A stretch of 64,000 bases of DNA, from contig OZ242195.1 in the NCBI GenBank assembly GCA_965205975.1, forward strand, positions 928,001 to 992,000, given 5' to 3'. The position numbers and the translations under genes were made by a program. This stretch comes from Candidatus Latescibacterota bacterium (GTDB lineage: Bacteria > Latescibacterota > UBA2968). The notes under the pieces were generated by a model, which saw nothing but the letters and a program-made list of their open reading frames with translations, ran no database searches and was not told the origin of the DNA. Shown piece after piece: positions 47,871 through 64,000 of the stretch (its first letter is position 1; every line of letters starts with the position of its first letter).

Positions 47871-48605
47871 TTACAGTGCGCGTCCGCGCAAAACCTCGCG
47901 GCATTGTCCCTCGCTATTGCCCGTCACATTATAGGCAAAGGTATTCATGCGGCGATCTCGATGCGATGTGTTTGGTCCCGATCCGTGGATGGTCAATGCG
48001 CTAAAAAATACCCCATCACCCGGTTCCATCGGAACGGGCACCGCGTCTTCTCGCTCGCGATAGTGCCCCGGCAAAAATACGCCAAAACTCATTTGTGCAC
48101 GTTCGTGTTCTTGCAGACCCCATTTCTGGCTGCCGGGGATAAATTGAATACAGCCATTTTCATCGTCTGTCCCGTCAATGGCGAGTTGACAATTTACCAT
48201 CAGAGGCCGATTGTCTTCGCGTTTCCAATACGCGTAATCCTGGTGCCAGGGTATTGCCGTGCCATCGCGTGCGGCTTTCATCAATAGCTTGCTGTGATAC
48301 AGTGAGATATTCGGCCCGATCAGTGTCTCTATAATATCCAACATATCATCACAGCGCAATGCGCGATTTAACCCTGTGCTGACCACTTCGCTGTGCATCA
48401 ACTGTCGGATGCGTTTGGGCGCGTGCCCATCCTCGAATTCTTCCCATGAGATTCCGACTCTGTCGGGCATGTTTTTTGCCATTCGCTCGTGCAAGTCCGC
48501 AATTTCGCGTTCGATATGGGAAATCTCTCCGGAAGTGATCAATCCCTTTTTTAACACATATCCATTCTGGTCGTAGAATTTCCGTTCTGCATCCGTTAGC
48601 CCCAT
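47871..48605 (-). CDS. Phytanoyl-CoA dioxygenase (PhyH) family
   Basis: PWHQD, ENGCIQFIPGS, TIHGSGPN...RR. Confidence 0.92.
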   Translation of the reverse strand: MGLTDAERKFYDQNGYVLKKGLITSGEISHIEREIADLHERMAKNMPDRVGISWEEFEDGHAPKRIRQLMHSEVVSTGLNRALRCDDMLDIIETLIGPNISLYHSKLLMKAARDGTAIPWHQDYAYWKREDNRPLMVNCQLAIDGTDDENGCIQFIPGSQKWGLQEHERAQMSFGVFLPGHYREREDAVPVPMEPGDGVFFSALTIHGSGPNTSHRDRRMNTFAYNVTGNSEGQCREVLRGRAL

Positions 48606-48713
48606 TGGACACTCCTTTTGTAGTTTCAACCAGCATCTAATTTACAAATTATGACACGCTCTTGCAAAATCAATTATATTTATAGAGCGGAAATTAGAAA
48701 TAGGGAACAGAAA

Positions 48714-48837: not shown

Positions 48838-50994
48838 ATGAAAATACGTATTTTTTTTGCTTTGTTGTTCTGTATCTCTCTTTTGGGAAGTATTTCTGAG
48901 GCATCTGATTGGACGCACTGGCGCGGTCCTATGCAAAATGGCGCTTCGCCAGAGACGGAGCTTATTTCTACATGGTCTCTTGATGGAGAAAATCTGATCT
49001 GGCGCCGCGAGTTTATCGGCAGATCTACACCGATTATTGTAAATGGTCGGGTCTATGTTATCGGGCGAACCGGCAAAGACATAACCGAGCAGGAGCACAT
49101 TGCGTGTTTTGATGCAGAAACGGGCGACCTCTTATGGGAAAAAAAGTTCAATGTCTGGCACTCAACCATAACCTTCAATCGTCTGGGATGGGCAAGCCTG
49201 GGGGCCGATGGCGAGACCGGTAATATTTACGCCCATCTCGTCAGTGGGTTATTGATCTGTTTTGATACCGATGGCTATGTCCAGTGGCAACGGTCTCTAA
49301 CCGAAGAATTTAACCGATTCTCCGGTTATGGCGGGCGATTGCACACGCCCGTTGTCGATGGCGATCTGGTCATCATCAGCATGGGCAATCGCGGATGGGC
49401 TGGTGTACCGCCTTCTCATCGGTATGTTGCCTTTAATAAACACACGGGTGAAACCGCGTGGATGGCTCGTCCAGGCGGCGGTGGGCAGGTCGATTTAACC
49501 GTTTACTCTACGCCTGTTGTCACGACAATTGATGGGCAGCGCGTGTTGGTTGCCGGCAATGGCAATGGCGGCATTTTTGCCTTTAAAGTCGCAACGGGTG
49601 AAAAAGTATGGGGTTTTCCATTCAGTAAGCGCGGCATCAACACCTCGCCTGTCGTGGCTGATAATCGCGTTTTTGTCACACACAGCGAAGAAAATGTCGA
49701 TAATACCGCCCTGGGTCGCGTTGCGTGTTTGGATGCGAGCACGGGCAAAGAAATCTGGCGACAAGACGGTATGACCGCGGGCTATGCTTCGCCAGCAGTC
49801 CACGATGGGCGCGTCTATGTTATAGATAATTCGGCCAATGTGCATTGTTTGGACGCCAGGACGGGGAAGCAATATTGGGAGCAAAATATCGGCACTGTGG
49901 GCAAGGGATCGCCGACATGGGCCGATGGCAAACTCTATGTTACTGAAGTCAATGGCGGCTTCCAGATTCTCAAAACGAACAATATGGGCGCGGAAGTTCT
50001 CGACAAAAAGAAAATCGCAATGCCCGAGGGCGGACATGCCGAGATCTATGGGTCGGTCGCTGTTGCGTATCGTCGTATCTATTTTGCGACCGAAGCCGGG
50101 TTATTTTGTCTGGGTGATAAAAACGCGCGATTTGAAGTAACACCTTCTCCTCAGACAAAGCACGAAAGCGCGCCCGCTGGTGCAAAACCCGCATCTATTC
50201 TATCTATTCCGGCTGAGGCTACTATACAACAGGGCGAGGTGTTGCCCCTGCGGGCAGAGGCTTATGATGAGAAGGGGCGCTTGATCGGCAATGCCGACGC
50301 CGAGTGGTTGTTGAACGGCCTGGCTGGAGAAATAAAGAATAATCAGTTTGTACCATCCCGACCGGGACAGGGCGGTTGGATCACGGCCAAACTGGGTGAA
50401 TTAACCCGACAGACATGGGTGCGCGTGGTGCCCGATGTGCCCTGGACAGAAGATTTTGAAAATGTCGAAGTTGGCACAAATCCATTGCACTGGGTGTGGG
50501 GAGGCAGGGGTTTTGCGGTGGAGGAAAAAGATGGCAACAAGGTCCTGGCAAAACCGCCGGCTGCACGCGGCTTAGATCGTTCAAATCTCTATGTGGCGCC
50601 GTACAAACTCAGTGGTTATACTATTCAAGCCGATCTTATGGGTACGCAAAACAAACGTCGTCGTCCCGATATGGGTCTCATCGCGCATCGCTATATTCTC
50701 GACCTTCAGGGCATTCACCAGCGCCTCGAAGTTCGGTCGTGGTCGTCGGATTTGCGCATGGCAAAACGCATCGATTTCCACTGGGACATGGGCGTGTGGT
50801 ACACCATGAAAATGAGAGTTGATATCGAAGGCGGTAAAGCTATTGTTCGGGGTAAAGTTTGGGAAAAAGGTCATACCGAACCCGATGCGTGGAGTATTGA
50901 AGTAGAGGATCCCCTGCCTATAGAAGAAGGCAGCCCTGCCCTTTACGGCTATTCACCCGCCACGATTTACTACGATAATGTGAAAATGTGGTAA
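48838..50994 (+). CDS. Secreted PQQ-like beta-propeller protein with C-terminal Ig-like and lectin-like domains
   Basis: Signal peptide, DWTHWRGP, repeated CxDAxTGxxxW blades, beta-sandwich tail. Confidence 0.85.
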   Translation: MKIRIFFALLFCISLLGSISEASDWTHWRGPMQNGASPETELISTWSLDGENLIWRREFIGRSTPIIVNGRVYVIGRTGKDITEQEHIACFDAETGDLLWEKKFNVWHSTITFNRLGWASLGADGETGNIYAHLVSGLLICFDTDGYVQWQRSLTEEFNRFSGYGGRLHTPVVDGDLVIISMGNRGWAGVPPSHRYVAFNKHTGETAWMARPGGGGQVDLTVYSTPVVTTIDGQRVLVAGNGNGGIFAFKVATGEKVWGFPFSKRGINTSPVVADNRVFVTHSEENVDNTALGRVACLDASTGKEIWRQDGMTAGYASPAVHDGRVYVIDNSANVHCLDARTGKQYWEQNIGTVGKGSPTWADGKLYVTEVNGGFQILKTNNMGAEVLDKKKIAMPEGGHAEIYGSVAVAYRRIYFATEAGLFCLGDKNARFEVTPSPQTKHESAPAGAKPASILSIPAEATIQQGEVLPLRAEAYDEKGRLIGNADAEWLLNGLAGEIKNNQFVPSRPGQGGWITAKLGELTRQTWVRVVPDVPWTEDFENVEVGTNPLHWVWGGRGFAVEEKDGNKVLAKPPAARGLDRSNLYVAPYKLSGYTIQADLMGTQNKRRRPDMGLIAHRYILDLQGIHQRLEVRSWSSDLRMAKRIDFHWDMGVWYTMKMRVDIEGGKAIVRGKVWEKGHTEPDAWSIEVEDPLPIEEGSPALYGYSPATIYYDNVKMW

Positions 50995-51026
50995 TCTTCA
51001 TAAACCCTTACATATAAAGGAATAAA

Positions 51027-52454
51027 ATGAAATTGAAAAGATTTTTAAGCGGATGTGTCATCGCTGGTTTGATTGTATCGGCTGGTATTGCCGAAGAGAC
51101 CATGTGGGGATTTACCCCGGATCGCAACCTCGTGTCAGACGCGAAGAATTTGCCGACGAGTTGGAATACAGAAACAGGGGAAAATATCGCCTGGAAAGCA
51201 GCCCTCGGCGCGCAGTCTTACGCTGGCCCCATCAGGATCGGGGGCAAAATATTTATGGGGACAAATAATCAGATCGAGCGCAACCCCAAAATCACGGGTG
51301 ACAAGGGCGTGATCATGGCTTTTCAGGAATCCGATGGAAAATTTCTCTGGCAAGCAGCGCATCCCAAGCTGCCCGCGGGGCGCGTCAATGACTGGCCACA
51401 ACAGGGCATTTGCTCCACGCCTTATATTCGCGGAGATCGGATGTATTATATCTCGAATCAATGTCGCGTGGTGTGCGCGGATACAGAGGGTTTTTTGGAT
51501 GGGGAAAATGATGGTCCGTACACAGGGGAAGAGGATACAAGCGACATCGGTGTGGATATTATCTGGGAATACGACATGATGGAAGAACTGGATGTGTTCC
51601 CTCACAATTTGGCGACCTGTTCGCCCGTGGGGGCGGGCAATCTGCTGTTTGTCATCACCGCCAATGGTGTTGATGAAGGTCACGTCGCCATTCCGTCGCC
51701 TCTGTCGCCCAGCTTTATTGCGGTCGATCTCAATACGGGGGAACTGGTATGGGAAAAAGCCTATCCGGGTGAAAGTATCTTGCACGGGCAGTGGTCCAAT
51801 CCCGCTTATGGCGTTATCAATGGCAAGCCGCAGGTGATCTGCCCTGGGGGCGATGGCTGGGTTTATTCGGTGGAACCCGAGACCGGGGACTTGATCTGGA
51901 AATTTGACTGCAATCCAAAAGATTCTGTATGGGAGTTGGGCGGACGCGGTACGCGCAATGCGATTATTTCCACTCCCGTTATTTACGATAACAAGGTTTT
52001 TATCGGTGTTGGGCAAGATCCCGAACACGGTGAGGGTATTGGTCATTTGTGGGCTATTGACGCGACGGGTACAGGTGATGTGACGGGAAGCCATGCGGTG
52101 TGGCACTTTGGCAATGAAAATTACAACCGAACTATTTCTACGGTGGGCATCAGCGATGGCCTGCTCTATGCAGCAGATCTGAGTGGGTTTGTCTATTGTC
52201 TCGATCTGAAAACTGGCACACAGCACTGGAAATACGACACATTTGCCGCGATATGGGGATCGCCTTTTGTGGCTGATGGGAAGGTGTACATTGGAGATGA
52301 AGATGGCGATGTGGCGATTTTGAAAGCCGGAACCGAGTTTGAATTGATCAACGAAATCAATATGGGCAGCGCCGTATATACCACGCCTATTGCAAAAGAT
52401 GGCATGCTCTATATTGGCACGCGCAATACGTTATATGCAATTAAGGGCAAATAG
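51027..52454 (+). CDS. Secreted PQQ-like beta-propeller protein
   Basis: Signal peptide, repeated AVDLNTGELVW/CLDLKTG blades. Confidence 0.85.
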   Translation: MKLKRFLSGCVIAGLIVSAGIAEETMWGFTPDRNLVSDAKNLPTSWNTETGENIAWKAALGAQSYAGPIRIGGKIFMGTNNQIERNPKITGDKGVIMAFQESDGKFLWQAAHPKLPAGRVNDWPQQGICSTPYIRGDRMYYISNQCRVVCADTEGFLDGENDGPYTGEEDTSDIGVDIIWEYDMMEELDVFPHNLATCSPVGAGNLLFVITANGVDEGHVAIPSPLSPSFIAVDLNTGELVWEKAYPGESILHGQWSNPAYGVINGKPQVICPGGDGWVYSVEPETGDLIWKFDCNPKDSVWELGGRGTRNAIISTPVIYDNKVFIGVGQDPEHGEGIGHLWAIDATGTGDVTGSHAVWHFGNENYNRTISTVGISDGLLYAADLSGFVYCLDLKTGTQHWKYDTFAAIWGSPFVADGKVYIGDEDGDVAILKAGTEFELINEINMGSAVYTTPIAKDGMLYIGTRNTLYAIKGK

Positions 52455-52470
52455 AAGAGGTCATTACAAT

Positions 52471-53559
52471 ATGGAAGTGTTGGCAACATCTTTTGCTGAT
52501 AAGATCAAAGAAGCGCGCGATACCCTCGATGCCCATGTGCGAGATATGGTCGCCTGGCATTTTAATCCCGGTACGGGATGTCCTTTCTGGCTGGAATTTG
52601 CAGAGGAATTGGATTTTGATCCTCGGCGGGAGATCGGTGGATACAGTGACTTGAAATATCTCGGGCATTTCCAGGACGAATGGTTGCGTGGGGGACCCGT
52701 GCGGCGATGGATCCCCAGGGGGAGTGAGGCACAGCGGACTTATGTCTTTGAGACGGGTGGCTCAACCGGTGTTCCCAAATATCGGATCAGCCAAAATGAT
52801 TTTCAGATCGACTACGAAATGTTCAGCGAGCACCTTTCTGAAGAAACATTTCCAAAAGGTGCAGACTGGTTGATGCTGGGACCAACAGGTCCCCGGCGAT
52901 TGCGTCTGGCTGTGGAATATCTCTGTCAGATTCGCGGTGGAATTTGTTTTCTCGTGGATCTCGATCCCCGATGGGTCAACAAGCTGATCACGCGCGGCGC
53001 GCTCCAGGAATTGGAGCTTTACAAAGCGCATGTTATCGATCAGGCGCTCACTATTTTGCGCGCGAACGATAATGTGAAGTGCATGTTCACGACTCCTAAG
53101 CTCCTCGAAGAATTGTGCGAAAAAATTTCCCTGCAAAAAGCCGGGATCAGCGGCATTTTTTGCGGCGGTACAGAGATGAATGCACAATTTAATCGGTTTG
53201 CGAGAGAAGAGCTTATCCCGGGCATCGATTTTGTTCCTACCTACGGCAATACCCTGATGGGACTGGCTTATTCCAAACCGCTCGAACCCGGAGATAACTA
53301 CGCGATTACGTATTATCCGCCCGTGCCCCGCGCGTTTATAGAACTGGTGAATCCAAATAATCCCGATGAAGAGGTCGATTACGACGAAGTCGGGCGCGTG
53401 ATGCTGACGACGCTCACAAAAGAATTTTTTATGCCCCGCTTTCTCGAACGCGATGAGGCCGAACGCGCCAAACCCATTGAGGCTTACCCCTGGGATGGCG
53501 TGAGAAACCTGGGGCTGTTCTCCGAATTGCAGGAATCAGTCGTCGTTGGGGTGTATTAA
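52471..53559 (+). CDS. GriC/EhpF-like truncated adenylate-forming enzyme (arylcarboxylate reductase component)
   Basis: WHFNPGTGCPFW, P-loop ETGGSTGVPK, GPTGP, DLDPRWV, YGNTL, FLERD. About 362 aa, lacking the ANL C-terminal domain. Confidence 0.75.
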   Translation: MEVLATSFADKIKEARDTLDAHVRDMVAWHFNPGTGCPFWLEFAEELDFDPRREIGGYSDLKYLGHFQDEWLRGGPVRRWIPRGSEAQRTYVFETGGSTGVPKYRISQNDFQIDYEMFSEHLSEETFPKGADWLMLGPTGPRRLRLAVEYLCQIRGGICFLVDLDPRWVNKLITRGALQELELYKAHVIDQALTILRANDNVKCMFTTPKLLEELCEKISLQKAGISGIFCGGTEMNAQFNRFAREELIPGIDFVPTYGNTLMGLAYSKPLEPGDNYAITYYPPVPRAFIELVNPNNPDEEVDYDEVGRVMLTTLTKEFFMPRFLERDEAERAKPIEAYPWDGVRNLGLFSELQESVVVGVY

Positions 53560-53581
53560 ATTGGGCGGATCGTTTATCCTA

Positions 53582-54727
53582 TCAGGGTAACCCCAACTCA
53601 TGGCAGAAAGTAGAAAATGGCAGCACGCGCGTGTTGTCTGTTGCATTGCCAAAATCCTTTGTGCCCAGATGTACCTGGTAAAATCGCGGAATATCTGTTC
53701 GCTCTCTGAAGTATCGACAGGTGGGAGAAGTACCGCGCTCGCCAGTTTTGCACTCAACGGCAAATTCCGCATAGCCGTCGCGGAGAACGACAAAATCTAC
53801 CTCGCGCTTGTCGGTATCTCGGATAAAGCGCAATTCCATGTCATATCCTTCTGTATCTTCGACGTAGTGGCAGTATTTCAGCAAGTGTCCGGCCACCATG
53901 TTCTCAAAACGGGCACCTGGGTCTGCTACGCGCGACCAGTCCCAGAAATACAGTTTTTTCTCCTTGCGCACAGCTCTGATCCTTTTCGCACCAAATGGTG
54001 GGATGCGGTAGCACAGGTACAGTCTTTCAAAAATCGAAAGCCAGCGTTCGACGGTTTCGTAAGCCACTTGTAATAGTTTGCTGAGGCTGTTGACCGAAAG
54101 CGGAGATCCCACGCAGGCGGGTAAGTGAGACAGTAGCAGGTCCAGCATGGATATTTCTCGTACATTTTCCAGGTCTCGGAGGTCTTCATAGATGACTCTT
54201 GCGGAATGCTCGCGTAGCCATCTGCGGTGAAATCGCGCCTCCCCCTTGAGAAGAGGCTCGGGAAAACCGCCAAATCTGAGCAATTGCGCCACGAGCGCGT
54301 TATCAGACTTTTGTCCGCATTCCATCAGGGTGAAGGGATGCAGGCGGTAGTAGTGATACCGCCCTTGCAAGGAGTCGCCGCCTTTGCGGTAGTAATCCAG
54401 CCGTGCCGAGCCAGTGACAATAAAAGAAACGGATGTCTTGTTTTTGTCGAATAGTCCCTTCATTAGATTTCGCCATTGCGCGTACTTGTGAATTTCATCG
54501 AAAATAATGCGGGTTTGTCCAGAAGGGAGTCTTCCCGCCAGAATATTCGCGCGATCGGCGAGTACATCCCAATTCAGGTAGGCGGGTGATGACTCATTCT
54601 GATCTTGCCCCAGCAGGGAGATTGCGAGTGTTGTTTTTCCAACCTGTCGAGGGCCGCCGACGAATATCATCCTGTTCGTGATATCTGATTCGATATGGTC
54701 TAAGATGTAGCGAGGTTCCATATTCAT
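53582..54727 (-). CDS. AAA_14 ATPase with DUF4143 and C-terminal PD-(D/E)xK-like motif
   Basis: GPRQVGKTT, FDEIHK, TGSAR, DSLQGR, GGFPE, KLYFWD, REVDF...VECK. Confidence 0.92.
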   Translation of the reverse strand: MNMEPRYILDHIESDITNRMIFVGGPRQVGKTTLAISLLGQDQNESSPAYLNWDVLADRANILAGRLPSGQTRIIFDEIHKYAQWRNLMKGLFDKNKTSVSFIVTGSARLDYYRKGGDSLQGRYHYYRLHPFTLMECGQKSDNALVAQLLRFGGFPEPLLKGEARFHRRWLREHSARVIYEDLRDLENVREISMLDLLLSHLPACVGSPLSVNSLSKLLQVAYETVERWLSIFERLYLCYRIPPFGAKRIRAVRKEKKLYFWDWSRVADPGARFENMVAGHLLKYCHYVEDTEGYDMELRFIRDTDKREVDFVVLRDGYAEFAVECKTGERGTSPTCRYFRERTDIPRFYQVHLGTKDFGNATDNTRVLPFSTFCHELGLP

Positions 54728-54745
54728 CACCTTTTTCGCATGTCG

Positions 54746-54809
54746 TGAGTATTTTAGACTATATCTTAATATACTCATGAGTGTTTTAGAGTCAATATGA
54801 AAATACTCA
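54746..54809. promoter_or_regulatory. Two tandem 32-bp imperfect palindromes (putative operator)
   Basis: tgagtattttagactatatcttaatatactca / tgagtgttttagagtcaatatgaaaatactca. Confidence 0.65.
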
Positions 54810-54942
54810 TATATCTCATTGTGCTTGCTTTTACTGGAAAGAAAAGCTAATTTTCTATGCTAAACGCGAGTTAAAGCCGCACCTGGAGATGATTTAACGG
54901 TTATCAAATTTCTTTTCTGAATGTTGTAGAGAGGCGAAATAC

Positions 54943-56367
54943 ATGATTCACTTACCCATTTTACGCGCGGGGGAACCGTACACGAGCTTGAGCGTTCAGG
55001 AAGTGTCGCATATTCAAACTGGCGAACCGCTCGTTCGGGTCAGTCAGGCAAACCGGGGGTTGGTCGCTAAGGACTTAAATGCAGCGACGGCGAACAAACA
55101 GGTGCTCGACAGGCTGAGTGTATCCGAACTCGTGGGCATAACCCGCGAAGCTGCGCGCTTATTTGCAGAAGCTGATTTGCCAATTGGTGACCATATCCAG
55201 ACGCCCGATGATTATGTCAAACAGGTTTCTGGCACAACGGGTATGCCCGAAGCGCTCTGCCGTGCGAATATGGAGAAGATTCAACTCGTGTGTACGGAGA
55301 TCGAAGCTATTTTAGGAGGTCTCACGCGCGGGTTAGATCTCGCTGTTCTCGATGAGGGCTGGCACAACCAGGATGGTCGCTCTCTCAGCTATATTTGTCA
55401 GGCCGATGCACTCGGAGCTATATTGCCGAGCAATTCGCCAGGGGTACACGCGCTGTGGGTTCCATCCATCCCGCTCAAAGTGCCCCTTGTTTTAAAACCC
55501 GGGCGCGAAGAGCCCTGGACGCCTTTCCGAATTGCACAGGCGTTTATAGAAGCGGGGTGCCCGCCAGAAGCGTTTGGGTTCTATCCGACGGATCACGGTG
55601 GTGCTACTGAAATTTTGATTCGATGTGGTCGCTCCATGCTCTTTGGGGGCGGGGCGACGGTCGCCCCCTGGCTGGGCGATCCCCGCGTGGAAATTCATGG
55701 GCCTGGGCAGAGTAAGGTCATTATTGGTGAAGATATGATAGATCGCTGGGAAGACTGTCTCGATATCGCCGTTGCTTCAATTACTGCAAATGGCGGTCGC
55801 TCTTGTATCAATGCGTCGGGCGTTTGGGTTCCCGCGCATGGTCGAGAAATTGCCGAAGCACTCGCAGAGCGATTGGCAAAAATTGTCGGGAGACCTCTGG
55901 ATGATCCGGAGGCGCAGATCGCGGCATTTACCAATCCCACATTCGCCGATCAAATTTCGACAGCGATAGACATCCATCTGAAAACTCCAGGAGCCGAAGA
56001 TTTGACCGAGAAATTGCGCGGTGATCGGTTGGTCGAGATCGATGGATTGAAATTCTTAAACCCCACGGTTGTCCGGTGTGACGATTTTGAACATCCTCTT
56101 GCAAATACGGAATATTTATTCCCCTACGCGAGCGTGGTCGAAGTCTCGCAGTCGGAAATTTTGGATAAGATCGGACCGAGTCTCGTGGTGACAGCAATAA
56201 CAGAAGACCGTGCATTTATCGATAAATTGCTCAATTCGCCCCATGTAGAAAGACTCAATGTGGGGGCGATTCCCACGCATCAGATTTCATGGGATCAACC
56301 ACACGAGGGCAATTTGTTCGAACACCTGTACCGGCAGCGCGCGCTGCAATGGGCGAAACAGGCATAG
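54943..56367 (+). CDS. ALDH-superfamily acyl reductase (GriD/EhpG-like)
   Basis: PSNSPGVH, LKPG, catalytic Cys in GRSCINAS, HGPG where ALDHs have ELGG. Confidence 0.8.
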   Translation: MIHLPILRAGEPYTSLSVQEVSHIQTGEPLVRVSQANRGLVAKDLNAATANKQVLDRLSVSELVGITREAARLFAEADLPIGDHIQTPDDYVKQVSGTTGMPEALCRANMEKIQLVCTEIEAILGGLTRGLDLAVLDEGWHNQDGRSLSYICQADALGAILPSNSPGVHALWVPSIPLKVPLVLKPGREEPWTPFRIAQAFIEAGCPPEAFGFYPTDHGGATEILIRCGRSMLFGGGATVAPWLGDPRVEIHGPGQSKVIIGEDMIDRWEDCLDIAVASITANGGRSCINASGVWVPAHGREIAEALAERLAKIVGRPLDDPEAQIAAFTNPTFADQISTAIDIHLKTPGAEDLTEKLRGDRLVEIDGLKFLNPTVVRCDDFEHPLANTEYLFPYASVVEVSQSEILDKIGPSLVVTAITEDRAFIDKLLNSPHVERLNVGAIPTHQISWDQPHEGNLFEHLYRQRALQWAKQA

Positions 56368-56370
56368 GAG

Positions 56371-57486
56371 ATGAAAGCATTTGATTTTTATCCCACTACG
56401 CGCGTGGTGTTTGGGGAGGGCACACTCGCGCAGTTGGGGGAATTATCAAAAGAATTGGGTGGAAGCCGCATTCTTTTTGTAACCGATCCAGGGATTGTAA
56501 GTGCCGGGCTTGCAGACCGTGCGATTGTGGTGCTTCGGCGCGCTTCCCTGGATTTTTTTGTATTTGATAGTGTAGGTGAAAATCCCACGACCGCGCATAT
56601 TGGGACCGGTGTCACGTTTGCAAAAGCACAGGGAAATATTGATTTGATCGTCGGTATGGGTGGGGGAAGCGCGATGGATTGCGCTAAGGGGATCAATTTT
56701 ATCCTGACAAACGGCGGACAGATGGAAGATTATCGGGGTATGGGCCATGCGGCAAAACCCATGTTGCCCTCTATTGGGATTCCAACGACTGCAGGCACTG
56801 GGAGCGAAGCACAGTCCTACGCGCTTATTTCCGATGCAAAAACACATGTCAAGATGGCCTGTGGCGACCTGAAAGCGCGATTTCGAAGTGTTATTCTCGA
56901 TCCGTCGCTGGTCGAAAGTGTGCCGAAAGATGTCGCAGCAGCAGCGGGTATAGATGCCATTGCACACGCCATTGAAAGTTATGTTTGTACGCGCCGCACT
57001 GCCATTTCTATGATGTTCGCACAAAAGGCGTGGCAATTGCTTTCATCGAGTTTTGAAAGCGTACTGAAGGATGCTGCCAATAGCGAGACGAGAGGGAAAA
57101 TGCTTTTGGGGGCGCACTTTGCTGGCGCGGCTGTTGAGAACGCCATGTTGGGTGCAGCACATGCGTGTGCCAATCCATTGACCGCGCATTTTGGTATTGT
57201 ACATGGTGTCGCTGTGGCACTTATGCTGCCCGCTGTCGTCCAATTCAATGGAGAAACCGAAAGTACGCGCTATCGTGGACTTGGAGCGGATGTTGATGAA
57301 CTCGTCGAGAAGGTCGTTTTTCTAAAAGAATGTGCAAATCTGCCTTCTCGATTGCGCGACCTCGGTGTAGCACATGACTGCCTTCCAATGCTGGCAAGAG
57401 ATGCGACCGAACAATGGACGGGTACCTTTAATCCGAGACCCGTGGATGAAGATGATTTTCTCGCCCTTTACGAATCTGTGTATTGA
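56371..57486 (+). CDS. Iron-containing alcohol dehydrogenase
   Basis: GGGSAMDCAK, PTTAGTGSE, DAIAHAIE, LGAAHA, HG. Confidence 0.95.
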   Translation: MKAFDFYPTTRVVFGEGTLAQLGELSKELGGSRILFVTDPGIVSAGLADRAIVVLRRASLDFFVFDSVGENPTTAHIGTGVTFAKAQGNIDLIVGMGGGSAMDCAKGINFILTNGGQMEDYRGMGHAAKPMLPSIGIPTTAGTGSEAQSYALISDAKTHVKMACGDLKARFRSVILDPSLVESVPKDVAAAAGIDAIAHAIESYVCTRRTAISMMFAQKAWQLLSSSFESVLKDAANSETRGKMLLGAHFAGAAVENAMLGAAHACANPLTAHFGIVHGVAVALMLPAVVQFNGETESTRYRGLGADVDELVEKVVFLKECANLPSRLRDLGVAHDCLPMLARDATEQWTGTFNPRPVDEDDFLALYESVY

Positions 57487-57492
57487 TCCGCA

Positions 57493-58593
57493 ATGAGAGT
57501 GCTTCTTTTTTTTCTTGTTTTTTATTTATTTTTTATTCCCGTCCATGCAGAAGAATGGAATCGCTTTCGCGGGGATGCACAATCTACGGGTGTTGCAAAT
57601 AGTAGCCTGCCCGCTGAACTGGATGTGTTGTGGACGGCACAGGTCGAAATAGGGATTGAATCCACCGCCGCAATTTGGCAAGACGCGGTGTATGTGGGCG
57701 GGTTGGATGAAAAGCTGTATGCTTTTGATTTTGATAGTGGTGCGATCAAATGGACGTATATGGCTACGGGTGAGATCAAGTCGTCACCACTGGTTTTTGA
57801 AAAAACCGTGTTTTTCGGTGATGGCAATGGCGTTTTTCACGCTGTTGATGCACAAACAGGTAACGCTCTGTGGACGTTTCAAACGGATGGGGAGATTATC
57901 TCGTCGGCAAATGCAACTGGGGGGCGCATCCTGTTTGGGTCTTATGACCAGTTTTTATACTGCCTCGCGCCGGACGACGGGTCGTTATTGTGGAAGATAG
58001 AAACGGATGGTTATGTTCACGGCATGCCGGCTATTGCACAAACTCACACACTCATCGCGGGCTGTGATGGTCTTTTGCGCGTTATCGATATTGCCAGCGG
58101 AAAAGAGCAATCGCAAATTGAACTCGGTGCTTATGTGGGTGCCAGCGCAGCTGTGCATCAGGCGCGCGCTTATGTGGGGACTTATGAGAGCCAGGTTTTG
58201 TGCATTGACTTAATGGCAAAAGAAATTGCCTGGCGATACGAACATCCGCAACGCAAATTGCCCTATTTTGCATCGCCATCCGTAACCTCTGAGCGGGTTA
58301 TTGTTGCAGGGCGCGACAAAATGGTTCACGCGCTTGATCCCAATACGGGCGATGTTTTGTGGACTTACATGTCCCGCTCCCGATTTGAAGCATCTCCCGT
58401 TGTGGTGGGTGATCGCGTTTTTGCAGGGACGACGGGGGGCAAAATCGTGGCATTAAATATCGAGACCGGTGAACTCGGTTGGGAATTTGTGACCGGATCG
58501 GAATTTGTTGCCTCGCCCAGTGTGGCGCGCGACCGGCTGATTATTGGCACAACAGATGGCACGTTATATTGTTTTGGAAAGGCGGAAGAATGA
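57493..58593 (+). CDS. Secreted PQQ-like (BamB-like) beta-propeller protein
   Basis: Signal peptide, WNRFRGD, regular AxDxxxGxxxW blades. Confidence 0.88.
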   Translation: MRVLLFFLVFYLFFIPVHAEEWNRFRGDAQSTGVANSSLPAELDVLWTAQVEIGIESTAAIWQDAVYVGGLDEKLYAFDFDSGAIKWTYMATGEIKSSPLVFEKTVFFGDGNGVFHAVDAQTGNALWTFQTDGEIISSANATGGRILFGSYDQFLYCLAPDDGSLLWKIETDGYVHGMPAIAQTHTLIAGCDGLLRVIDIASGKEQSQIELGAYVGASAAVHQARAYVGTYESQVLCIDLMAKEIAWRYEHPQRKLPYFASPSVTSERVIVAGRDKMVHALDPNTGDVLWTYMSRSRFEASPVVVGDRVFAGTTGGKIVALNIETGELGWEFVTGSEFVASPSVARDRLIIGTTDGTLYCFGKAEE

Positions 58594-59936
58594 GCGAGCA
58601 AATCCAGATTCCAGAGCCAGCGACAACCCGCAAAGTGTGGAAGGAAACAGATGTTGGTAGCGTATTTGTTTCCAATTATCCGCCTTACTCTTTCTGGCGC
58701 GATGAAAATACAGCAGAGATTGAAGAGATGTTGCACACATCCGATTCGGGGGATAGAGAAATATCGCTGGGCCTTTACATGCATATTCCATTTTGTCGAA
58801 AGCGGTGCAAGTTCTGTTATTTTCGGGTTTATACAGATCGCAATAGTGCTGAAATTCAAACGTATTTAGATGCTCTGGCAAAAGAGGTGGAAACGTATAG
58901 TACCTTGCCCCGTATTGCAGGTCGAAAATTGCACTTTGTTTATTTTGGTGGTGGTACGCCGTCTTATATCAGTGTCAAACACTTAAAGGCTCTGGTTGAC
59001 AGGGTCAAGGCTGTGATGCCGTGGGATGATGCGGAAGAGGTGGCATTTGAGTGTGAGCCTGGTACGCTTTCACAGTCCAAAGTTGAGGCTATTCGGGAAA
59101 TTGGCGTCACGCGCTTGAGCCTGGGTTTGGAGAACTTAAACGACGATATTTTGCAGGAGAATGGTCGCGCGCACGTCAGCAAAGAAATTTACAGGGCTAT
59201 GCCGTGGGTCAAGGCGCAGGAATTTGCACAGGTCAATGTAGATTTAATCTCCGGTATGGTCGGGGAGACGTGGGAGACATGGCGAGATACGGTGCAGGGC
59301 ACCATTGATCTCGACGCGGACAGCGTCACTATTTATCAGATGGAATTGCCGTTTAATACGACGTATTCAAAATCGATACGCGATGGAGGAGGTTTGCAGG
59401 TCGCAGATTGGCCTACCAAGCGCGCCTGGCACAATTACGCGATTGAAGAGTTTGCCAGAGCGGGTTATGAAACATCGAGTGCTTATACGCTGGTGAAAAA
59501 AGGTCGTCTGAACAAATTCGTCTATCGAGATGCTCTGTGGCGGAGCGCGGATCTCATCGGTACGGGTGTGGCTTCTTTTTCCCATGTGGGTGGCATGCAC
59601 TTTCAAAACCAGACGCATTGGGATCCCTATATCGAAACTGTTGGAAAAGGGCAGCTTCCGATCAATCGCTCTTTTGTGCCGACAAAAGAAGAGCAACTGA
59701 TCAGAGAGATGATTTTGCAACTCAAGCTCGGGCGGATTGAGACAGCGTATTTTCAGGATAAATTTGGCGTCAATATTTTGCAGCAATTTGGTGATGCCTA
59801 TCAGAAGCTCAGGGAATACGAGATGCTGGATTTCGATTCGCAGAGTATCACTCTGAGCCGGGAGGGACTTTTGCGCGTCGATCAGTTGCTTCCCGAATTT
59901 TATCACGAAAAATATCGCAATTCGCGCTATACATGA
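58590..59936 (+). CDS. HemN-like radical SAM enzyme
   Basis: YMHIPFCRKRCKFC, YFGGGTPS, RLSLG, NVDLISG. 4-bp overlap with the upstream gene. Confidence 0.92.
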   Translation: MSEQIQIPEPATTRKVWKETDVGSVFVSNYPPYSFWRDENTAEIEEMLHTSDSGDREISLGLYMHIPFCRKRCKFCYFRVYTDRNSAEIQTYLDALAKEVETYSTLPRIAGRKLHFVYFGGGTPSYISVKHLKALVDRVKAVMPWDDAEEVAFECEPGTLSQSKVEAIREIGVTRLSLGLENLNDDILQENGRAHVSKEIYRAMPWVKAQEFAQVNVDLISGMVGETWETWRDTVQGTIDLDADSVTIYQMELPFNTTYSKSIRDGGGLQVADWPTKRAWHNYAIEEFARAGYETSSAYTLVKKGRLNKFVYRDALWRSADLIGTGVASFSHVGGMHFQNQTHWDPYIETVGKGQLPINRSFVPTKEEQLIREMILQLKLGRIETAYFQDKFGVNILQQFGDAYQKLREYEMLDFDSQSITLSREGLLRVDQLLPEFYHEKYRNSRYT

Positions 59937-59966
59937 GCGATCACTACCACTAACTATGGAGGATTT

Positions 59967-61208
59967 ATGAAATACAGGCATTATTTCTTACTCGCTGTTG
60001 TGCTTTGCTTTTCTTCCGCACACGCGGATTGGCCCCAATGGCTGGGTCCCAATCGGACGGGTATTTCATCTGAAACGGGGTTGTTGACAATCTGGGCAAA
60101 AGATGGACCAGCGGTTGTGTGGGAAAAAGAACTCGGTGAGGGATTTTCCGGTATCTCGGTCGCAGATGGGCGGGTTTATACGATGTTTTCTGCCGGGGAG
60201 GACGAATTTGTCATTTGTCTGAATGAAAAAACGGGCGAGGAAATCTGGCGTTTCAGGACCGGTGCCAAATACTATGAGCGTCAAGGTGGGAACGGTCCCC
60301 GTTCTCAGCCTACTGTAGATGGTGATCGGGTTTTTGTGCTCAGTGCCGAGGGCTGGTTGTACGCGCTCAATGCAAAAGATGGGAAAAAACTCTGGCTGGT
60401 CGATCTTTACGATGGGTTGGGCAGTCGCGTGCCAAAATTCGGTTTTTCGACGTCGCCGCTGGTGGAAGGCGATTTGTTGCTTTTAGAGGTGGGCACACGG
60501 CAAGGGACGTTTATCGCTTTGGATAAGACCAATGGCGCTGTCAAGTGGGCGTCTCAAAACGATATTGTTTCTTATTCATCGCCTATTGCTGTAGATATTG
60601 CGGGTATTCGCCAGGTGGTTTTTGTTTCGGGCGAAGCCGCGGTGGGGCTTTCTCCCACGGATGGTTCGCTCTACTGGCGATTGCCCTGGTCCACATCTTA
60701 TGATCTGAATATTGCCACGCCAATTTTAGTGCCTCCAGATCACATCTTTATTTCTTCGGGTTATGACCACGGCGCAGCCCTGTTGCAAATTGAACCACAG
60801 GGAGATGGTTTGAGCGTTAAAAAGGTTTGGGAAAGCCGCGGCATGAAAAACCATTTTGGCACATCGCTCCTGATCGGCGACTATATCTACGGTTTTGACA
60901 ATGCAATTTTGAAATGTATTGAGGCAAAGACTGGCAAAGAACAGTGGAGACGCCGTGGATATGGTAAGGGGTCTCTTATTTATGCCGATGGACGGTTGAT
61001 CATTTTGAGCGATAAAGGCAAACTCGCTTTGGCAGATGTATCGCCCACAGAGTTTCGGGAAAAGGCCAGCGCGCAAGTGCTGTCGGGCAAATGCTGGACA
61101 CCACCAACACTTGCTAATGGGAAAATTTTTGTGCGCGATATGCACAGGATTGTATGCATGGATGTATCGGGTACGCAGGCGAAACCTGCGGATACGGAGA
61201 GCGAATAA
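59967..61208 (+). CDS. Secreted PQQ-like beta-propeller protein
   Basis: Signal peptide, DWPQWLGPNRTG, SYSSP, WTPPTLANG. Confidence 0.88.
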   Translation: MKYRHYFLLAVVLCFSSAHADWPQWLGPNRTGISSETGLLTIWAKDGPAVVWEKELGEGFSGISVADGRVYTMFSAGEDEFVICLNEKTGEEIWRFRTGAKYYERQGGNGPRSQPTVDGDRVFVLSAEGWLYALNAKDGKKLWLVDLYDGLGSRVPKFGFSTSPLVEGDLLLLEVGTRQGTFIALDKTNGAVKWASQNDIVSYSSPIAVDIAGIRQVVFVSGEAAVGLSPTDGSLYWRLPWSTSYDLNIATPILVPPDHIFISSGYDHGAALLQIEPQGDGLSVKKVWESRGMKNHFGTSLLIGDYIYGFDNAILKCIEAKTGKEQWRRRGYGKGSLIYADGRLIILSDKGKLALADVSPTEFREKASAQVLSGKCWTPPTLANGKIFVRDMHRIVCMDVSGTQAKPADTESE

Positions 61209-61257
61209 TAGTCGGAAAAGGCCGGGGGACTGAGATCTGACAATTGGAGAAGCCGCA

Positions 61258-63378
61258 ATGCGTTATTTTCGACAGCTTTTGATTTTTGTCTGTGTTTTGA
61301 GCATGATGGGTAATCTTATTTTTGCGCAGAATACAGAAGAGGAAGAGAAGAAGGAAGAACTGCCCGTTTATGCGGGGGAAGAGATTGTGGTGACGGAGAG
61401 CAAGGAAAAAGTGCCTACCGTGAGCACGATCGCGACGAAGATTCCCGTTCCGATCCGCTTGACGCCGGCGAGTATCGGTGTAGTCAATCACGGATTATTT
61501 CAACATCAAAGCGGCGTGGTTTTGGGGGATGCACTGCGAAATGTGAGCGGGGTCAATATCCAGACTGTATTTGGCGTTACGGATTTCTTTGTCATTCGCG
61601 GATTTGATTCTCTTTCCAGCGGGCTGGTGCTCACCGATGGCGCATCGGAGCCGGAAGCCACGTTTTACAATCTCTACAATCTGGAGCGCGTGGAGGTGCT
61701 CAAGGGTCCGGGGGCATTTTTATACGGCGGCAATCCGCTTTCTGGATCGGTAAATCTGAGTCGCAAACAACCGATTTTTACAAATGCGCTCCAGATCGGA
61801 GGTTCTTACGGTCCGTACAAGACGGGGCGCGGAACAGTAGATGCAAATTGGGCGGATGTCGATCAGGGTATTGCCTTGCGCGTCAATGCACTACGGCAGG
61901 TGTCTGATAGCTATCGAGACGATAAAGACAGCGGTTTGTGGGCTGTGAATCCCGCGGCGACGTGGCGGCCCAGTGACAAAACCACAGTGACCGCCAATTT
62001 CGAATATGTCACCAGCAGGTACAAATCGGATGCGGGCCTTCCCATTATTAATGGGGTGGTCGCAGATGTGCCGCGCACACAATCGTATCAATCGCCTTTT
62101 GATGCGTCCGATCAAGATATTTATCGGGCGCGCGTCGATCTTCACTCTCGCTTGTCGCGACAGGTCACGCTTCGCAACAAGTTCTATTATACCGATTTTT
62201 CATGGATATCTCAGGGTACGTTGTTCAGCGGCGTTTTTCCCAATGCTCAGGGGAGTCTGGATATTTTGCGATCACTCGTTCTTTTGGATGACCGTCAGAA
62301 AGTGTTGGGCAATCAGTTTGAGTTTTTATCTACATTCCGCACGGGACACGTAGAACACACGCTGCTTACCGGACTGGAATTGATGCAGTGGAAAGACAAA
62401 TTTACCTTAGATGTGGCTGCTTTGCCCAATATCGACGTGTTCACCCCCGTGGAAACTGCGAGCCAGCCATTTTTTATTATTCCAGGGCAATCGCAGGGGG
62501 CGGATTCAAAAAGTCTCGTTGTCGCGCCTTATGTCGTGAATCGCATTGTCTTTTGTCCATGCTATGAGGCATTTGTAGGTGTGCGATATGACCGCATTGA
62601 TTACGATGATCCCATGACTTCCACGTCTCGCAATTACAACAAACTGAGTCCTATGGCAGGTATGGTGTTTTCGCTTAAGGAGGATCTCTCGTTTTACGCC
62701 AATGTGGGTAAAGCATTTGCGCCTCCTTCGAGCCTGGTCGCAGGCCCGCGAGAGACCGAAGAGAGTTTTCAGATGGAAGTGGGCGCGAAAAAATACTTGT
62801 TGGACGACCGCCTGCACGCGAGTTTTGCCGTTTATCATTTGGCAAAAGACAACATCGGAATCCCCGATGCGACAGGTGTCACACAGCAAGATGGCGATCA
62901 ACGGTCTCGCGGTGTCGAGCTGGAGATGATGGTGCGCCCCGTGAGAAATTGGCACACATTTTTGTCCTACTCATTTTCCAATGCCACACTCACACGTTTT
63001 GCCGAGTTTGTTCCCGTGTTTACGCAGACGGGTATTACATACCAGCTTATGGATCGTTCGGGAAATAGGGCGGCTTTTTCGCCACGCCATATTTTCAATG
63101 TGTGGACAGCGAGGGGATTTGACAACGGGTTGGAATTTGGGATTGGCGCGCGCTATGTCACCAACCAGTTTATTGCCGCAGACAATCAATTTCAAATTGG
63201 GAATGTATTGACGCTGGATGCATCCGCGTCTTATACGTACAAGCAGATGAAATTTCGGATTAATGCGAAAAATTTAACCAATCGGGAATACGAAACGCAG
63301 GGTAGCCTTGGCGCTCCCACCTCAGTTATTCCGGCCAATCCATTTGGCCTGTATTGCGCTTTTGAAGTCAATATTTGA
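61258..63378 (+). CDS. TonB-dependent receptor (siderophore-receptor-like)
   Basis: EIVVT TonB box, IRGF, ERVEVLKGP...LYG, SRGVELE, NLTNREY. Confidence 0.93.
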   Translation: MRYFRQLLIFVCVLSMMGNLIFAQNTEEEEKKEELPVYAGEEIVVTESKEKVPTVSTIATKIPVPIRLTPASIGVVNHGLFQHQSGVVLGDALRNVSGVNIQTVFGVTDFFVIRGFDSLSSGLVLTDGASEPEATFYNLYNLERVEVLKGPGAFLYGGNPLSGSVNLSRKQPIFTNALQIGGSYGPYKTGRGTVDANWADVDQGIALRVNALRQVSDSYRDDKDSGLWAVNPAATWRPSDKTTVTANFEYVTSRYKSDAGLPIINGVVADVPRTQSYQSPFDASDQDIYRARVDLHSRLSRQVTLRNKFYYTDFSWISQGTLFSGVFPNAQGSLDILRSLVLLDDRQKVLGNQFEFLSTFRTGHVEHTLLTGLELMQWKDKFTLDVAALPNIDVFTPVETASQPFFIIPGQSQGADSKSLVVAPYVVNRIVFCPCYEAFVGVRYDRIDYDDPMTSTSRNYNKLSPMAGMVFSLKEDLSFYANVGKAFAPPSSLVAGPRETEESFQMEVGAKKYLLDDRLHASFAVYHLAKDNIGIPDATGVTQQDGDQRSRGVELEMMVRPVRNWHTFLSYSFSNATLTRFAEFVPVFTQTGITYQLMDRSGNRAAFSPRHIFNVWTARGFDNGLEFGIGARYVTNQFIAADNQFQIGNVLTLDASASYTYKQMKFRINAKNLTNREYETQGSLGAPTSVIPANPFGLYCAFEVNI

Positions 63379-63381
63379 ACT

Positions 63382-64000
63382 ATGCCCGACTTGACCACAG
63401 ACCGAAATGCGCTCTGGCAGCGGCAGTTGAAGCGGTTGCGAGGTATGCTGTCTTCAGTGCTGAATGGCAATGATTTTTATCGCAATAAGTTGAACCGGGT
63501 GGGTATTTATCGACCCGAGGATATTCAGACGCGCGATGATTACAGGCGGTTGCCCTTCACGACTAAAGCTGAATTATCGGCTGACCAGATGGCGTATCCC
63601 CCTTATGGCAGCAATGTGACTTTTCCGCCAGATCACTATATTCGCGTCCATCAAACATCGGGGACTACGGGAGAGCCTTTGAACTGGTTGGATACGGCAG
63701 AGAGTTGGGATTGGTTTGCGCGTTGCTGGACTTATGTGTATCGCGGAGCGGGCGTGACGGCAAATGACAGACTGTTTTTTGCCTTTTCCTTTGGCCCTTT
63801 TATCGGATTCTGGACCGGGCATGAGAGCGCGCGTTTAATGGGTGCGATGTCCATCTCTGGGGGTTCCATGTCGTCGATTCAGCGTTTGCAAGCGATTCAG
63901 GATCATCGGGTTACTGTTCTGATCTGTACGCCGACATATGCTCTGCATCTGGCAGAGGTGGCTGAGGCAGAAGGCATTGATATTGCAGGTGGAAGTGTTC
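63382..64000 (+). CDS. Phenylacetate-CoA ligase (PaaK)-like adenylate-forming enzyme (partial)
   Basis: Manual translation: FYRNKL...LPFTTKAEL...HQTSGTTGEP...FSFGPFIGFW...CTPTYALHL. Runs off the window. Confidence 0.9.
   Translation, partial: MPDLTTDRNALWQRQLKRLRGMLSSVLNGNDFYRNKLNRVGIYRPEDIQTRDDYRRLPFTTKAELSADQMAYPPYGSNVTFPPDHYIRVHQTSGTTGEPLNWLDTAESWDWFARCWTYVYRGAGVTANDRLFFAFSFGPFIGFWTGHESARLMGAMSISGGSMSSIQRLQAIQDHRVTVLICTPTYALHLAEVAEAEGIDIAGGSV

Follow-up and report, generated by a model that had tools for sequence, protein, structure and literature searches.

A 17-gene cluster of Candidatus Latescibacterota bacterium, which begins in a stretch of 64,000 nucleotides (contig OZ242195.1 of GenBank assembly GCA_965205975.1, positions 928,001 to 992,000 of the forward strand; hereafter, the window), combines a predicted aryl-acid reductase with tailoring enzymes, a glycosyltransferase, an ATP-binding cassette (ABC) transporter and secreted propeller proteins of the pyrroloquinoline quinone (PQQ)-like type. 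Here we show that a wider family of such propellers, the WRGP family, with its W.QWRGP motif near the N-terminus, is found in every genome of our panel that holds the permease and the propeller PropB of this cluster and, with the exception of one weak match, in none of the others. The system is real, widespread and uncharacterised: its enzyme families are known, but their assembly has no characterised match in our searches. We propose, at a probability of about 0.45 and hence somewhat short of even odds, that the cluster makes a halogenated, methylated hydroxybenzyl glycoside and supplies it, as ligand or cofactor, to propellers in the periplasm, the chemistry being deduced from protein family and gene context. 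Positions are numbered on the window, and genes beyond its end are given in the extended numbering of that window.

Distribution of the cluster genes and of the WRGP propellers

The distribution was scored in a panel of 80 of the 129 first-listed genomes, comprising 48 with a close EhpF homolog (20 Planctomycetota, 8 Latescibacterota and 20 from Acidobacteriota, Poribacteria and Calditrichota), two with a distant one and 30 without EhpF. Many of these genomes are drafts, and completeness is given for the Latescibacterota only. The permease and PropB genes each occur in 50 of the 80 genomes, and the two sets are identical, consisting of the 48 genomes with close EhpF together with G146 and G160; EhpF of the close type is thus present in 48 of the 50 permease/PropB genomes. 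The GT4 glycosyltransferase reaches the threshold in 49 of the 80, and G146 holds an additional 39% copy below that threshold.

Matches to the WRGP profile (A2) were counted at E ≤ 1e-50, a per-genome count of 23 standing for at least 23. All 48 EhpF-positive genomes have them (from 2 to at least 23 each, median 14.5), with at least 10 matches in 34 of the 48 and at least 23 in 10, and G146 and G160 each have at least 23, while the other 30 genomes yielded one weak match (in G085). The near-closed relatives without EhpF (G038 and G078; 97% complete) have no match. The genome studied here has eight, four of which are encoded outside the cluster. The same relationship is seen within genera, where EhpF-positive and EhpF-negative genomes have 8 versus 0 matches (G054 and G082), 4 versus 0 (G101 and G040) and, in genus g13, 5 in each of four genomes versus 0 and 1. 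The WRGP profile took the place of generic PF13360 counts, in which most of the difference comes from the propellers of the cluster itself. A first-pass annotation of the window had proposed that the product may serve the propellers, and that profiling against propeller-family expansion would be informative; the propeller family at large follows the cluster in its distribution, which supports this idea.

The remaining genes form a nested pattern. The halogenase and the radical SAM enzyme are each present in 42 of the 48 EhpF-positive genomes, being absent from the same six Acidobacteriota, and in none of the other 32 panel members. All three of the genomes lacking both that were tested retain the cluster-type SSS importer, which reads as a salvage pattern; G146 and G160 are without it. 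The PaaK-like ligase was found in 37 of the 48. An ortholog of the TonB-dependent receptor is present in 7 of the 48 and in none of the 20 Planctomycetota, and the receptor was therefore rejected as a core gene. The first-pass annotation had allowed for import of an aromatic acid; on this accessory distribution, import is not the core of the system.

G146 and G160 lack both EhpF and its aldehyde dehydrogenase (ALDH)-fold partner, yet hold the permease, GT4 and PropB-like genes along with large WRGP expansions; the site residues of their PropB-like proteins are altered. Their shared back-end genes (L198, L199 and L216; G160:C25 and G146:C13) lie beside genes for prenyltransferase or squalene-cyclase-like proteins, ferredoxin and 4Fe-4S membrane proteins, to which the G160 locus adds polyprenyl synthase-DUF116 and NuoEFG-like genes. 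The back end is here paired with a second kind of front end. Taken together, the profile and its exceptions indicate that the invariant unit is GT4, the ABC transporter and PropB with the WRGP family, and that the aryl reductase is the usual front end.

Extent and gene order of the cluster

The cluster is a run of sixteen plus-strand genes from position 48838 to about 8.8 kb beyond the window end, followed by two further propellers. All ten genes that the first-pass annotation had listed are present on the plus strand with the families it gave them; their run is interrupted by a minus-strand gene, considered below. Its statement that the cluster continues past the window end was borne out, as the downstream reading gave a halogenase, GT4, a 163-aa membrane protein, a thioesterase, an ABC ATPase, a permease and the two propellers, so that much of the core (GT4, ABC ATPase and permease) sits beyond the window end. 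Neighbouring genes in the window are separated by -4 to 49 bases, apart from the flanks of the interrupting gene.

Conservation was examined within 10 kb of the EhpF-like gene in 80 loci, many of them on incomplete contigs, from records of Latescibacterota, Poribacteria, Acidobacteriota, Planctomycetota and Calditrichota. The ALDH gene was found near the EhpF-like gene in 56 of these loci, PropB in 39, PropA in 36, the iron-containing alcohol dehydrogenase (Fe-ADH) in 34, PropC in 30 and the radical SAM gene in 26. Synteny thus recurs, beyond chance expectation, in several phyla that have been little studied, including the Planctomycetota and Acidobacteriota in which it had been expected. The nearest EhpF-like matches are 97-98% identical and belong to Candidatus Latescibacterota records. 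In its own phylum the gene is present in 81 of 121 genomes, and in a Planctomycetota-centred set in 111 of 201. Of these 111, 69 match at E < 1e-100 with 49-66% identity, 41 are distant homologs (32-38%) and the remaining one is split.

The full order recurs in other Latescibacterota with small losses and inserts: PropA, PropB, EhpF, ALDH, Fe-ADH, PropC, radical SAM, (PropD, TonB receptor), PaaK-like ligase, halogenase, GT4, membrane protein, thioesterase, ABC ATPase, permease. The planctomycetes G216 and G168 hold a near-complete cluster, within which lie genes for a chorismate-lyase-like protein and an SSS/DUF3311 importer. Most of the Acidobacteriota examined have the genes in three separate units, namely EhpF-ALDH-GT4-ABC-permease, PropA-PropB-(Fe-ADH)-PropC and radical SAM-halogenase-(thioesterase, PaaK-like ligase). 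PropA nearly always adjoins PropB, and PropC stays beside GT4 and the ABC genes even where a genome has no EhpF.

A distant EhpF-like gene (31-34% identity) with no ALDH partner nearby was seen in loci L146-L151 of G139, G188, G200, G218, G266 and G263, which we take to be anammox bacteria. It lies in a conserved block of genes labelled by eye as SDR, SCP2-like, MMPL-type transporter, U32 peptidase, aminotransferase and cytochrome genes, possibly a lipid pathway.

Front-end enzymes

The EhpF/GriC-like acid-adenylating enzyme (52471..53559, plus strand, start ATG at 52471) matches solved EhpF (PDB 3L2K/3HGU) with E = 1.5e-44 over residues 16-348. Among 46 family members 30% of positions are invariant and the P-loop is conserved, with an invariant FETGGxTG loop and a C-terminal GVY. 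Its partner, a GriD/EhpG-like ALDH-fold protein (54943..56367, plus strand), retains the catalytic Cys (RSCIN), which aligns with that of KauB, and has a conserved His in place of the Glu of the ELGGKS motif, a change that, from the chemistry of ALDH enzymes, would fit a non-hydrolytic reductase. With motifs intact and homology to solved EhpF, the two are predicted to form an acid-to-aldehyde reductase of the GriC/GriD type, in agreement with the first-pass annotation. GriC/GriD are reported to adenylate and then reduce 3-amino-4-hydroxybenzoate, an aryl acid, via acyl-AMP (PMC10179220), and EhpF-O to take phenazine dicarboxylate onward (PMC3175449). The next gene encodes the Fe-ADH (56371..57486, plus strand), with a GGGS motif and Asp/His metal ligands.

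Four further genes would serve the tailoring of the ring. The HemN-like radical SAM enzyme of the class C type (58590..59936, plus strand) keeps its CxxxCxxC motif and resembles HemN and NocN; it scored below all NCBIfam cut-offs (HutW 186 versus 400, HemN 181 versus 325, HemW 174 versus 205), and is predicted to be a ring methylase. The PaaK/BagE-like aryl-CoA ligase (63382..64650, plus strand) has the first 206 of its 422 codons inside the window (63382..64000), and is followed on the same strand by the halogenase (65320-66567) and, further on, a 4HBT/YbgC thioesterase (68404-68841). The best PDB matches of the halogenase are themselves halogenases (E 2.8e-67 to 2.3e-47), among them PltA, CmlS and ChlB4, enzymes that act on tethered substrates. 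GxGxxG and WFWYIP are present, and K74 aligns with the PltA lysine that is presumably catalytic; the protein also scores with the QhpG and LodB models, under their cut-offs. We therefore place it in the flavin-dependent PltA/CmlS-type family, with a predicted halogenating activity.

Chorismate-lyase-like genes were found among the tailoring genes of 11 genomes. They form two related families, one matching an Rv2949c-like Pfam family and the other no Pfam family; both match PDB 2NWI, and one another at 94% probability. In Sulfidibacter (L202), lyase, halogenase, thioesterase and ligase genes form a separate unit. Because such genes lie inside the clusters of relatives, 4-hydroxybenzoate is the proposed starting compound. 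The genome studied here carries a chorismate-lyase-like copy (43% identical) and an SSS importer (52%) elsewhere. Where the first-pass annotation had left it open whether an aromatic acid is imported or made, synthesis from chorismate is the more likely route in this genome.

The propellers and the export genes

Six of the 11 such propeller proteins in the genome are encoded in the cluster. PropA (48838..50994, plus strand) is a secreted eight-bladed propeller of the WRGP type, extended at the C-terminus by two beta domains that match no Pfam family, and PropB (51027..52454, plus strand) is a secreted eight-bladed propeller with an invariant His/acid site and a core gene. PropC (57493..58593, plus strand) is a regular secreted propeller that scores above the cut-off for Beta-prop_ACSF4, PropD (59967..61208, plus strand) is a secreted WRGP-family protein and a candidate client, and the WRGP propellers PropE (72907-74451, minus strand) and PropF (74598-75911, plus strand) follow the permease. 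The four in the window have a positive N-terminus and a hydrophobic stretch without a lipobox, read by a simple script as Sec signal peptides; neither a lipobox nor a vicinal Cys-Cys was found in any of the six. Scores of the four were below the cut-offs for PQQ-dependent dehydrogenases (TIGR03075, 35-81 bits versus 480) and for BamB (TIGR03300, 61-220 bits versus 285). Identity with PQQ-dependent enzymes was rejected on the low TIGR03075 scores and the missing Cys-Cys, and identity with BamB on the sub-threshold scores and the missing lipobox.

The structural model of PropB (predicted local distance difference test, pLDDT, 92.1) has eight blades. With loops assigned from the strand list of the model, the near-invariant polar residues, four His among them, are placed almost entirely in the loops of a single face (19, with one on the opposite face); the site residues are K114, D122, H193, H219, H253, Q330, D331, E333, H334 and R368. 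This concentration on one face predicts a metal or catalytic pocket. The closest solved folds are YxaL (Z 37.3, root-mean-square deviation [rmsd] 2.2, 333 residues aligned), BamB (Z 34.9, rmsd 2.5, 325 aligned) and tetrathionate hydrolase (Z 31.1, rmsd 2.5, 340 aligned). Fold searches returned these generic propellers only, with no assignment for the C-terminal domains of PropA (model pLDDT 92.3), and a search of the ESM Atlas gave PQQ_2 clusters only. A predicted PropB-PropA complex scored 0.00 against a mark of 0.32; it gives no verdict and is used neither way.

In this genome a WRGP propeller is fused to an enterochelin-esterase-like (Fes-like) domain (L086:4916-7288; G000:C1:3590916-3593291), and in Calditrichota and Acidobacteriota WRGP propellers adjoining the cluster are accompanied by ankyrin repeats, either in the same protein or in a neighbouring gene (L031:7691-9880 and L196:14420-15316).

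The export genes, all on the plus strand, are GT4 (66586-67887, with a YCGSC motif), the 163-aa membrane protein (67901-68392), a LolD-like ABC ATPase (68900-69553) and a 1099-aa MacB/FtsX permease (69538-72837), of which GT4, the ATPase and the permease are core genes. The accessory TonB-dependent receptor (61258..63378, plus strand) scores above the TIGR01783 cut-off and is predicted to be a salvage importer.

Local features of the locus

The gene that interrupts the run (53582..54778, minus strand) encodes an AAA_14/DUF4143 ATPase and parts the EhpF-like gene from the ALDH gene. At 38% identity or more it is found in 7 of the 80 related loci, all seven from the closest relatives, whereas the others have different inserts or none at this junction, and in one RNA-library contig from a relative 53577 runs straight on to 54930, so that the gene is skipped. 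It is a lineage-specific local insertion and no part of the system. The EhpF-ALDH junction (53560-54942; equivalents in L089, L017 and L043) is itself an insertion hotspot, at which relatives carry several genes unrelated to this one.

In four of four runs from four studies, contigs from RNA libraries of relatives (mostly 90-95% alike) span 30, 28, 30 and 29 of 30 bins, a coverage that, with no silent region as control, is not taken as evidence of expression. A search of 73 kb with Rfam gave no matches, and promoter and terminator counts at the locus are no different from those in shuffled sequence. Upstream and divergent from PropA lies a PhyH-family dioxygenase gene (47871-48629), one of 48 paralogs in the genome, which is retained in close relatives only. 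Directly 3' of PropF is a TAXI-type TRAP transporter (L002:15924-18765), which is also found near the cluster in L036, L095 and L222.

Relationship to known systems

The cluster maps onto no characterised pathway within the literature searched. With GriC/GriD (grixazone, Streptomyces griseus) and EhpF/EhpG (D-alanylgriseoluteic acid, Pantoea/Enterobacter agglomerans) it shares an EhpF homolog adjoining an ALDH-fold protein with a catalytic Cys, GriC, GriD and EhpG being likened by description. It differs from both in having a halogenase, a radical SAM enzyme, GT4, ABC genes and propellers. GriI/GriH and the phenoxazinone synthase GriF are not among the cluster genes, a statement that covers the cluster and not the whole genome. 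PhzF, the one phz gene sought (PF02567, PhzC-PhzF), has no match in this 98% complete genome and was matched in 10 of 14 controls; a phenazine system was rejected on this ground, in line with the missing phz core that the first-pass annotation had reported for the window.

A class of apparently similar clusters is described in a 2026 preprint, which reports 840 clusters with a halogenase plus an AMP-binding enzyme ('Halo_AMP') from sponges and seawater, with frequent PQQ-like domains, as an uncharacterised class to which Latescibacterota contribute 9% of the families and Poribacteria 8% (bioRxiv 10.64898/2026.08.03.742642). In our cluster the adjacent halogenase and ligase genes score above the cut-offs for PF04820 (93.7 bits) and PF00501 (32.2 bits), the defining combination, so the locus type is probably already in print. 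Shared are the halogenase and PaaK/BagE-like ligase with PQQ-like, radical SAM, glycosyltransferase, thioesterase and TonB genes. The preprint defines its class by search and reads it as brominated natural-product clusters; the EhpF/ALDH pair and a link to dispersed propellers do not appear in the Results text available. Our additions are the link to the propeller family and the nested profile. The EhpF pair together with GT4, ABC genes and propellers was not found described in the literature searched, which excluded subscription journals.

The baaAB genes of Planctomycetales 10988, assigned to 3,5-dibromo-p-anisic acid, place a chorismate-lyase-like gene beside a flavin halogenase, and a halogenated 4-hydroxybenzoate is proposed there but not genetically tested (bioRxiv 10.1101/723874). 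By description, this combination is the point of likeness. BaaB is described as about 44% similar to Bmp5, in contrast to the PltA/CmlS type found here, and baa as available to us has no reductase, GT4, ABC genes or propellers. Halogenated or 4-hydroxybenzoate products of planctomycetes are, in the available text, unlinked to this cluster (PMC12078418, PMC11848864, bioRxiv 10.1101/723874).

In its layout the system is like PQQ biosynthesis with its quinoproteins, since both combine genes for biosynthesis with an accessory TonB receptor for salvage, pathways that are partial in some genomes and an expanded periplasmic family of one fold confined to genomes with the pathway. Mycofactocin is a further system of this layout. 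It should be noted that the enzymes found here point to an aryl acid and not to a peptide, that quinoprotein-level scores and the Cys-Cys are missing, and that pqqC (TIGR02111) has no match in the genome in a search in which no control genome matched either. PropB shares the eight-bladed PQQ-like fold with BamB, YxaL and tetrathionate hydrolase, but is 16-22% identical to them, has no lipobox, and carries long conserved top loops with the His/acid site.

Proposed pathway and alternative explanations

In the proposed pathway, the chorismate-lyase-like protein would supply 4-hydroxybenzoate, which the PaaK-like ligase would tether to CoA for tailoring of the ring by the PltA-type halogenase and the radical SAM enzyme, before the thioesterase frees the acid. 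The EhpF/ALDH pair would then convert the acid to the aldehyde via acyl-AMP and acyl-Cys, and the Fe-ADH the aldehyde to the alcohol, a hydroxybenzyl alcohol halogenated on the ring and probably C-methylated. GT4 may attach a sugar, and the small membrane protein with the MacB/FtsX-type ABC transporter may carry the product across the inner membrane, where PropB, with PropA and PropC, would mature or load it and the dispersed WRGP propellers would be its users. The TonB and SSS transporters would recover precursor or product. While gene content, motifs, synteny and co-distribution are observed, the identity of the product, the order of the steps and the ligand are those that family and context suggest. 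A more specific version, in which 4-hydroxybenzoate gives rise to a new halogenated aromatic cofactor (a prosthetic group or redox cofactor) that is glycosylated, leaves through the ABC transporter and is loaded by PropB onto the WRGP family, is a tentative proposal that we regard as possible rather than probable.

Several observations weigh against delivery of one aromatic product to the propellers. The panel was chosen by EhpF status, the WRGP profile was built from EhpF-positive loci, and related genomes are not independent. Of the five WRGP matches in each matching genome of genus g13, four are near the cluster. The six genomes without halogenase and radical SAM genes are drafts, several of them Blastocatellia, and because the two genes are adjacent in Acidobacteriota, one deletion or missing contig explains both losses. 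PaaK-like matches (41-44%) also occur in 5 of the 30 EhpF-negative genomes. The distant EhpF clade lies in a lipid-type context, so the family need not be aryl-specific, and G146 and G160 keep the export and propeller set without EhpF and ALDH, so the back end is not tied to a single aromatic product. Finally, what WRGP paralogs have in common is limited to Trp, Gly and Pro scaffold positions; catalytic or ligand residues are not invariant among them, as would have been expected if all held the same cofactor.

One alternative is an envelope function, in which GT4, the ABC transporter and PropA, PropB and PropC build and place an amphipathic glycoside or glycolipid, aryl here and prenyl elsewhere, and the propellers are carriers or scaffolds and not cofactor enzymes. 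The LolD-like ATPase and the MacB/FtsX-like permease suit such a machine, as do the WRGP paralogs with no shared catalytic residues and the nearest solved folds of PropB, since BamB and YxaL are not known to be enzymes. G146 and G160 also combine the back end with polyprenyl synthase-DUF116 and prenyltransferase or cyclase genes, the synthase being present in 15 of the 50 back-end genomes, these two included, and in none of the other 30. However, 13 of these 15 genomes also have EhpF, so there is no simple replacement, and the idea that a prenyl module replaces the aryl module was rejected. The tightly conserved four-His/acid site on one face of PropB argues against mere carriers, and the ferredoxin and 4Fe-4S membrane genes at the G146 and G160 loci, with NuoEFG-like genes in G160, suit a redox role. 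The pattern in these two genomes supports a delivery system with clients, yet keeps the envelope glycoside alive as an explanation, which on balance we consider unlikely.

Equally improbable, in our view, is a secreted halogenated aromatic natural product for defence or signalling, exported by the ABC transporter, with propellers as carriers or for self-protection. It would agree with the sponge-microbiome Halo_AMP clusters and their frequent PQQ-like, radical SAM, glycosyltransferase, thioesterase and TonB genes (bioRxiv 10.64898/2026.08.03.742642), with the antibiotic or pigment pathways that EhpF and GriC are described as serving, and with the dibromo-anisic acid and 4-hydroxybenzoate ester reported from planctomycetes. 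Yet the genes are mostly single-copy, 40-70% identical across phyla and co-distributed even when scattered over the chromosome, genomes without the halogenase retain the rest of the set, and 34 of the 48 genomes have at least ten WRGP propellers, a number beyond what self-protection would call for.

A metallophore that leaves by the ABC transporter, re-enters through the TonB receptor and is unloaded by the His-rich PropB is very unlikely: a receptor scoring above the siderophore-receptor cut-off, the four conserved His of PropB and the WRGP propeller with a Fes-like esterase would fit, but the receptor is missing from 41 of the 48 genomes and from all 20 Planctomycetota, the cluster has no periplasmic iron ABC importer, and carboxylate reduction and glycosylation would be expected to remove chelating groups. 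Import and degradation or detoxification of external aromatic acids, by TonB/SSS uptake, CoA activation, reduction to the alcohol, glycosylation and efflux, is the least probable, since the importers, PaaK-like ligase and thioesterase, although typical of aromatic breakdown, stand beside in-cluster chorismate-lyase-like genes, a biosynthetic-type halogenase and a radical SAM enzyme that point to synthesis, and ring-cleavage and beta-oxidation genes are absent from the cluster.

Implications

PQQ-like propellers are strongly expanded, without explanation, in Planctomycetota and Acidobacteriota, and a single biosynthesis-and-export system would tie them together. Cultured carriers of the cluster are known, such as Sulfidibacter corallicola M133. 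Should the product be secreted or placed in the envelope, the cluster would be a widespread bacterial source of organohalogens in soils and sponges. If instead it is a cofactor, this would be a new one, possibly halogenated; many 'BamB-like' or 'PQQ-like' proteins of Planctomycetota, Acidobacteriota, Poribacteria and Latescibacterota would then belong together as a single class of periplasmic proteins that depend on this cofactor, and auxotrophs would salvage intermediates.

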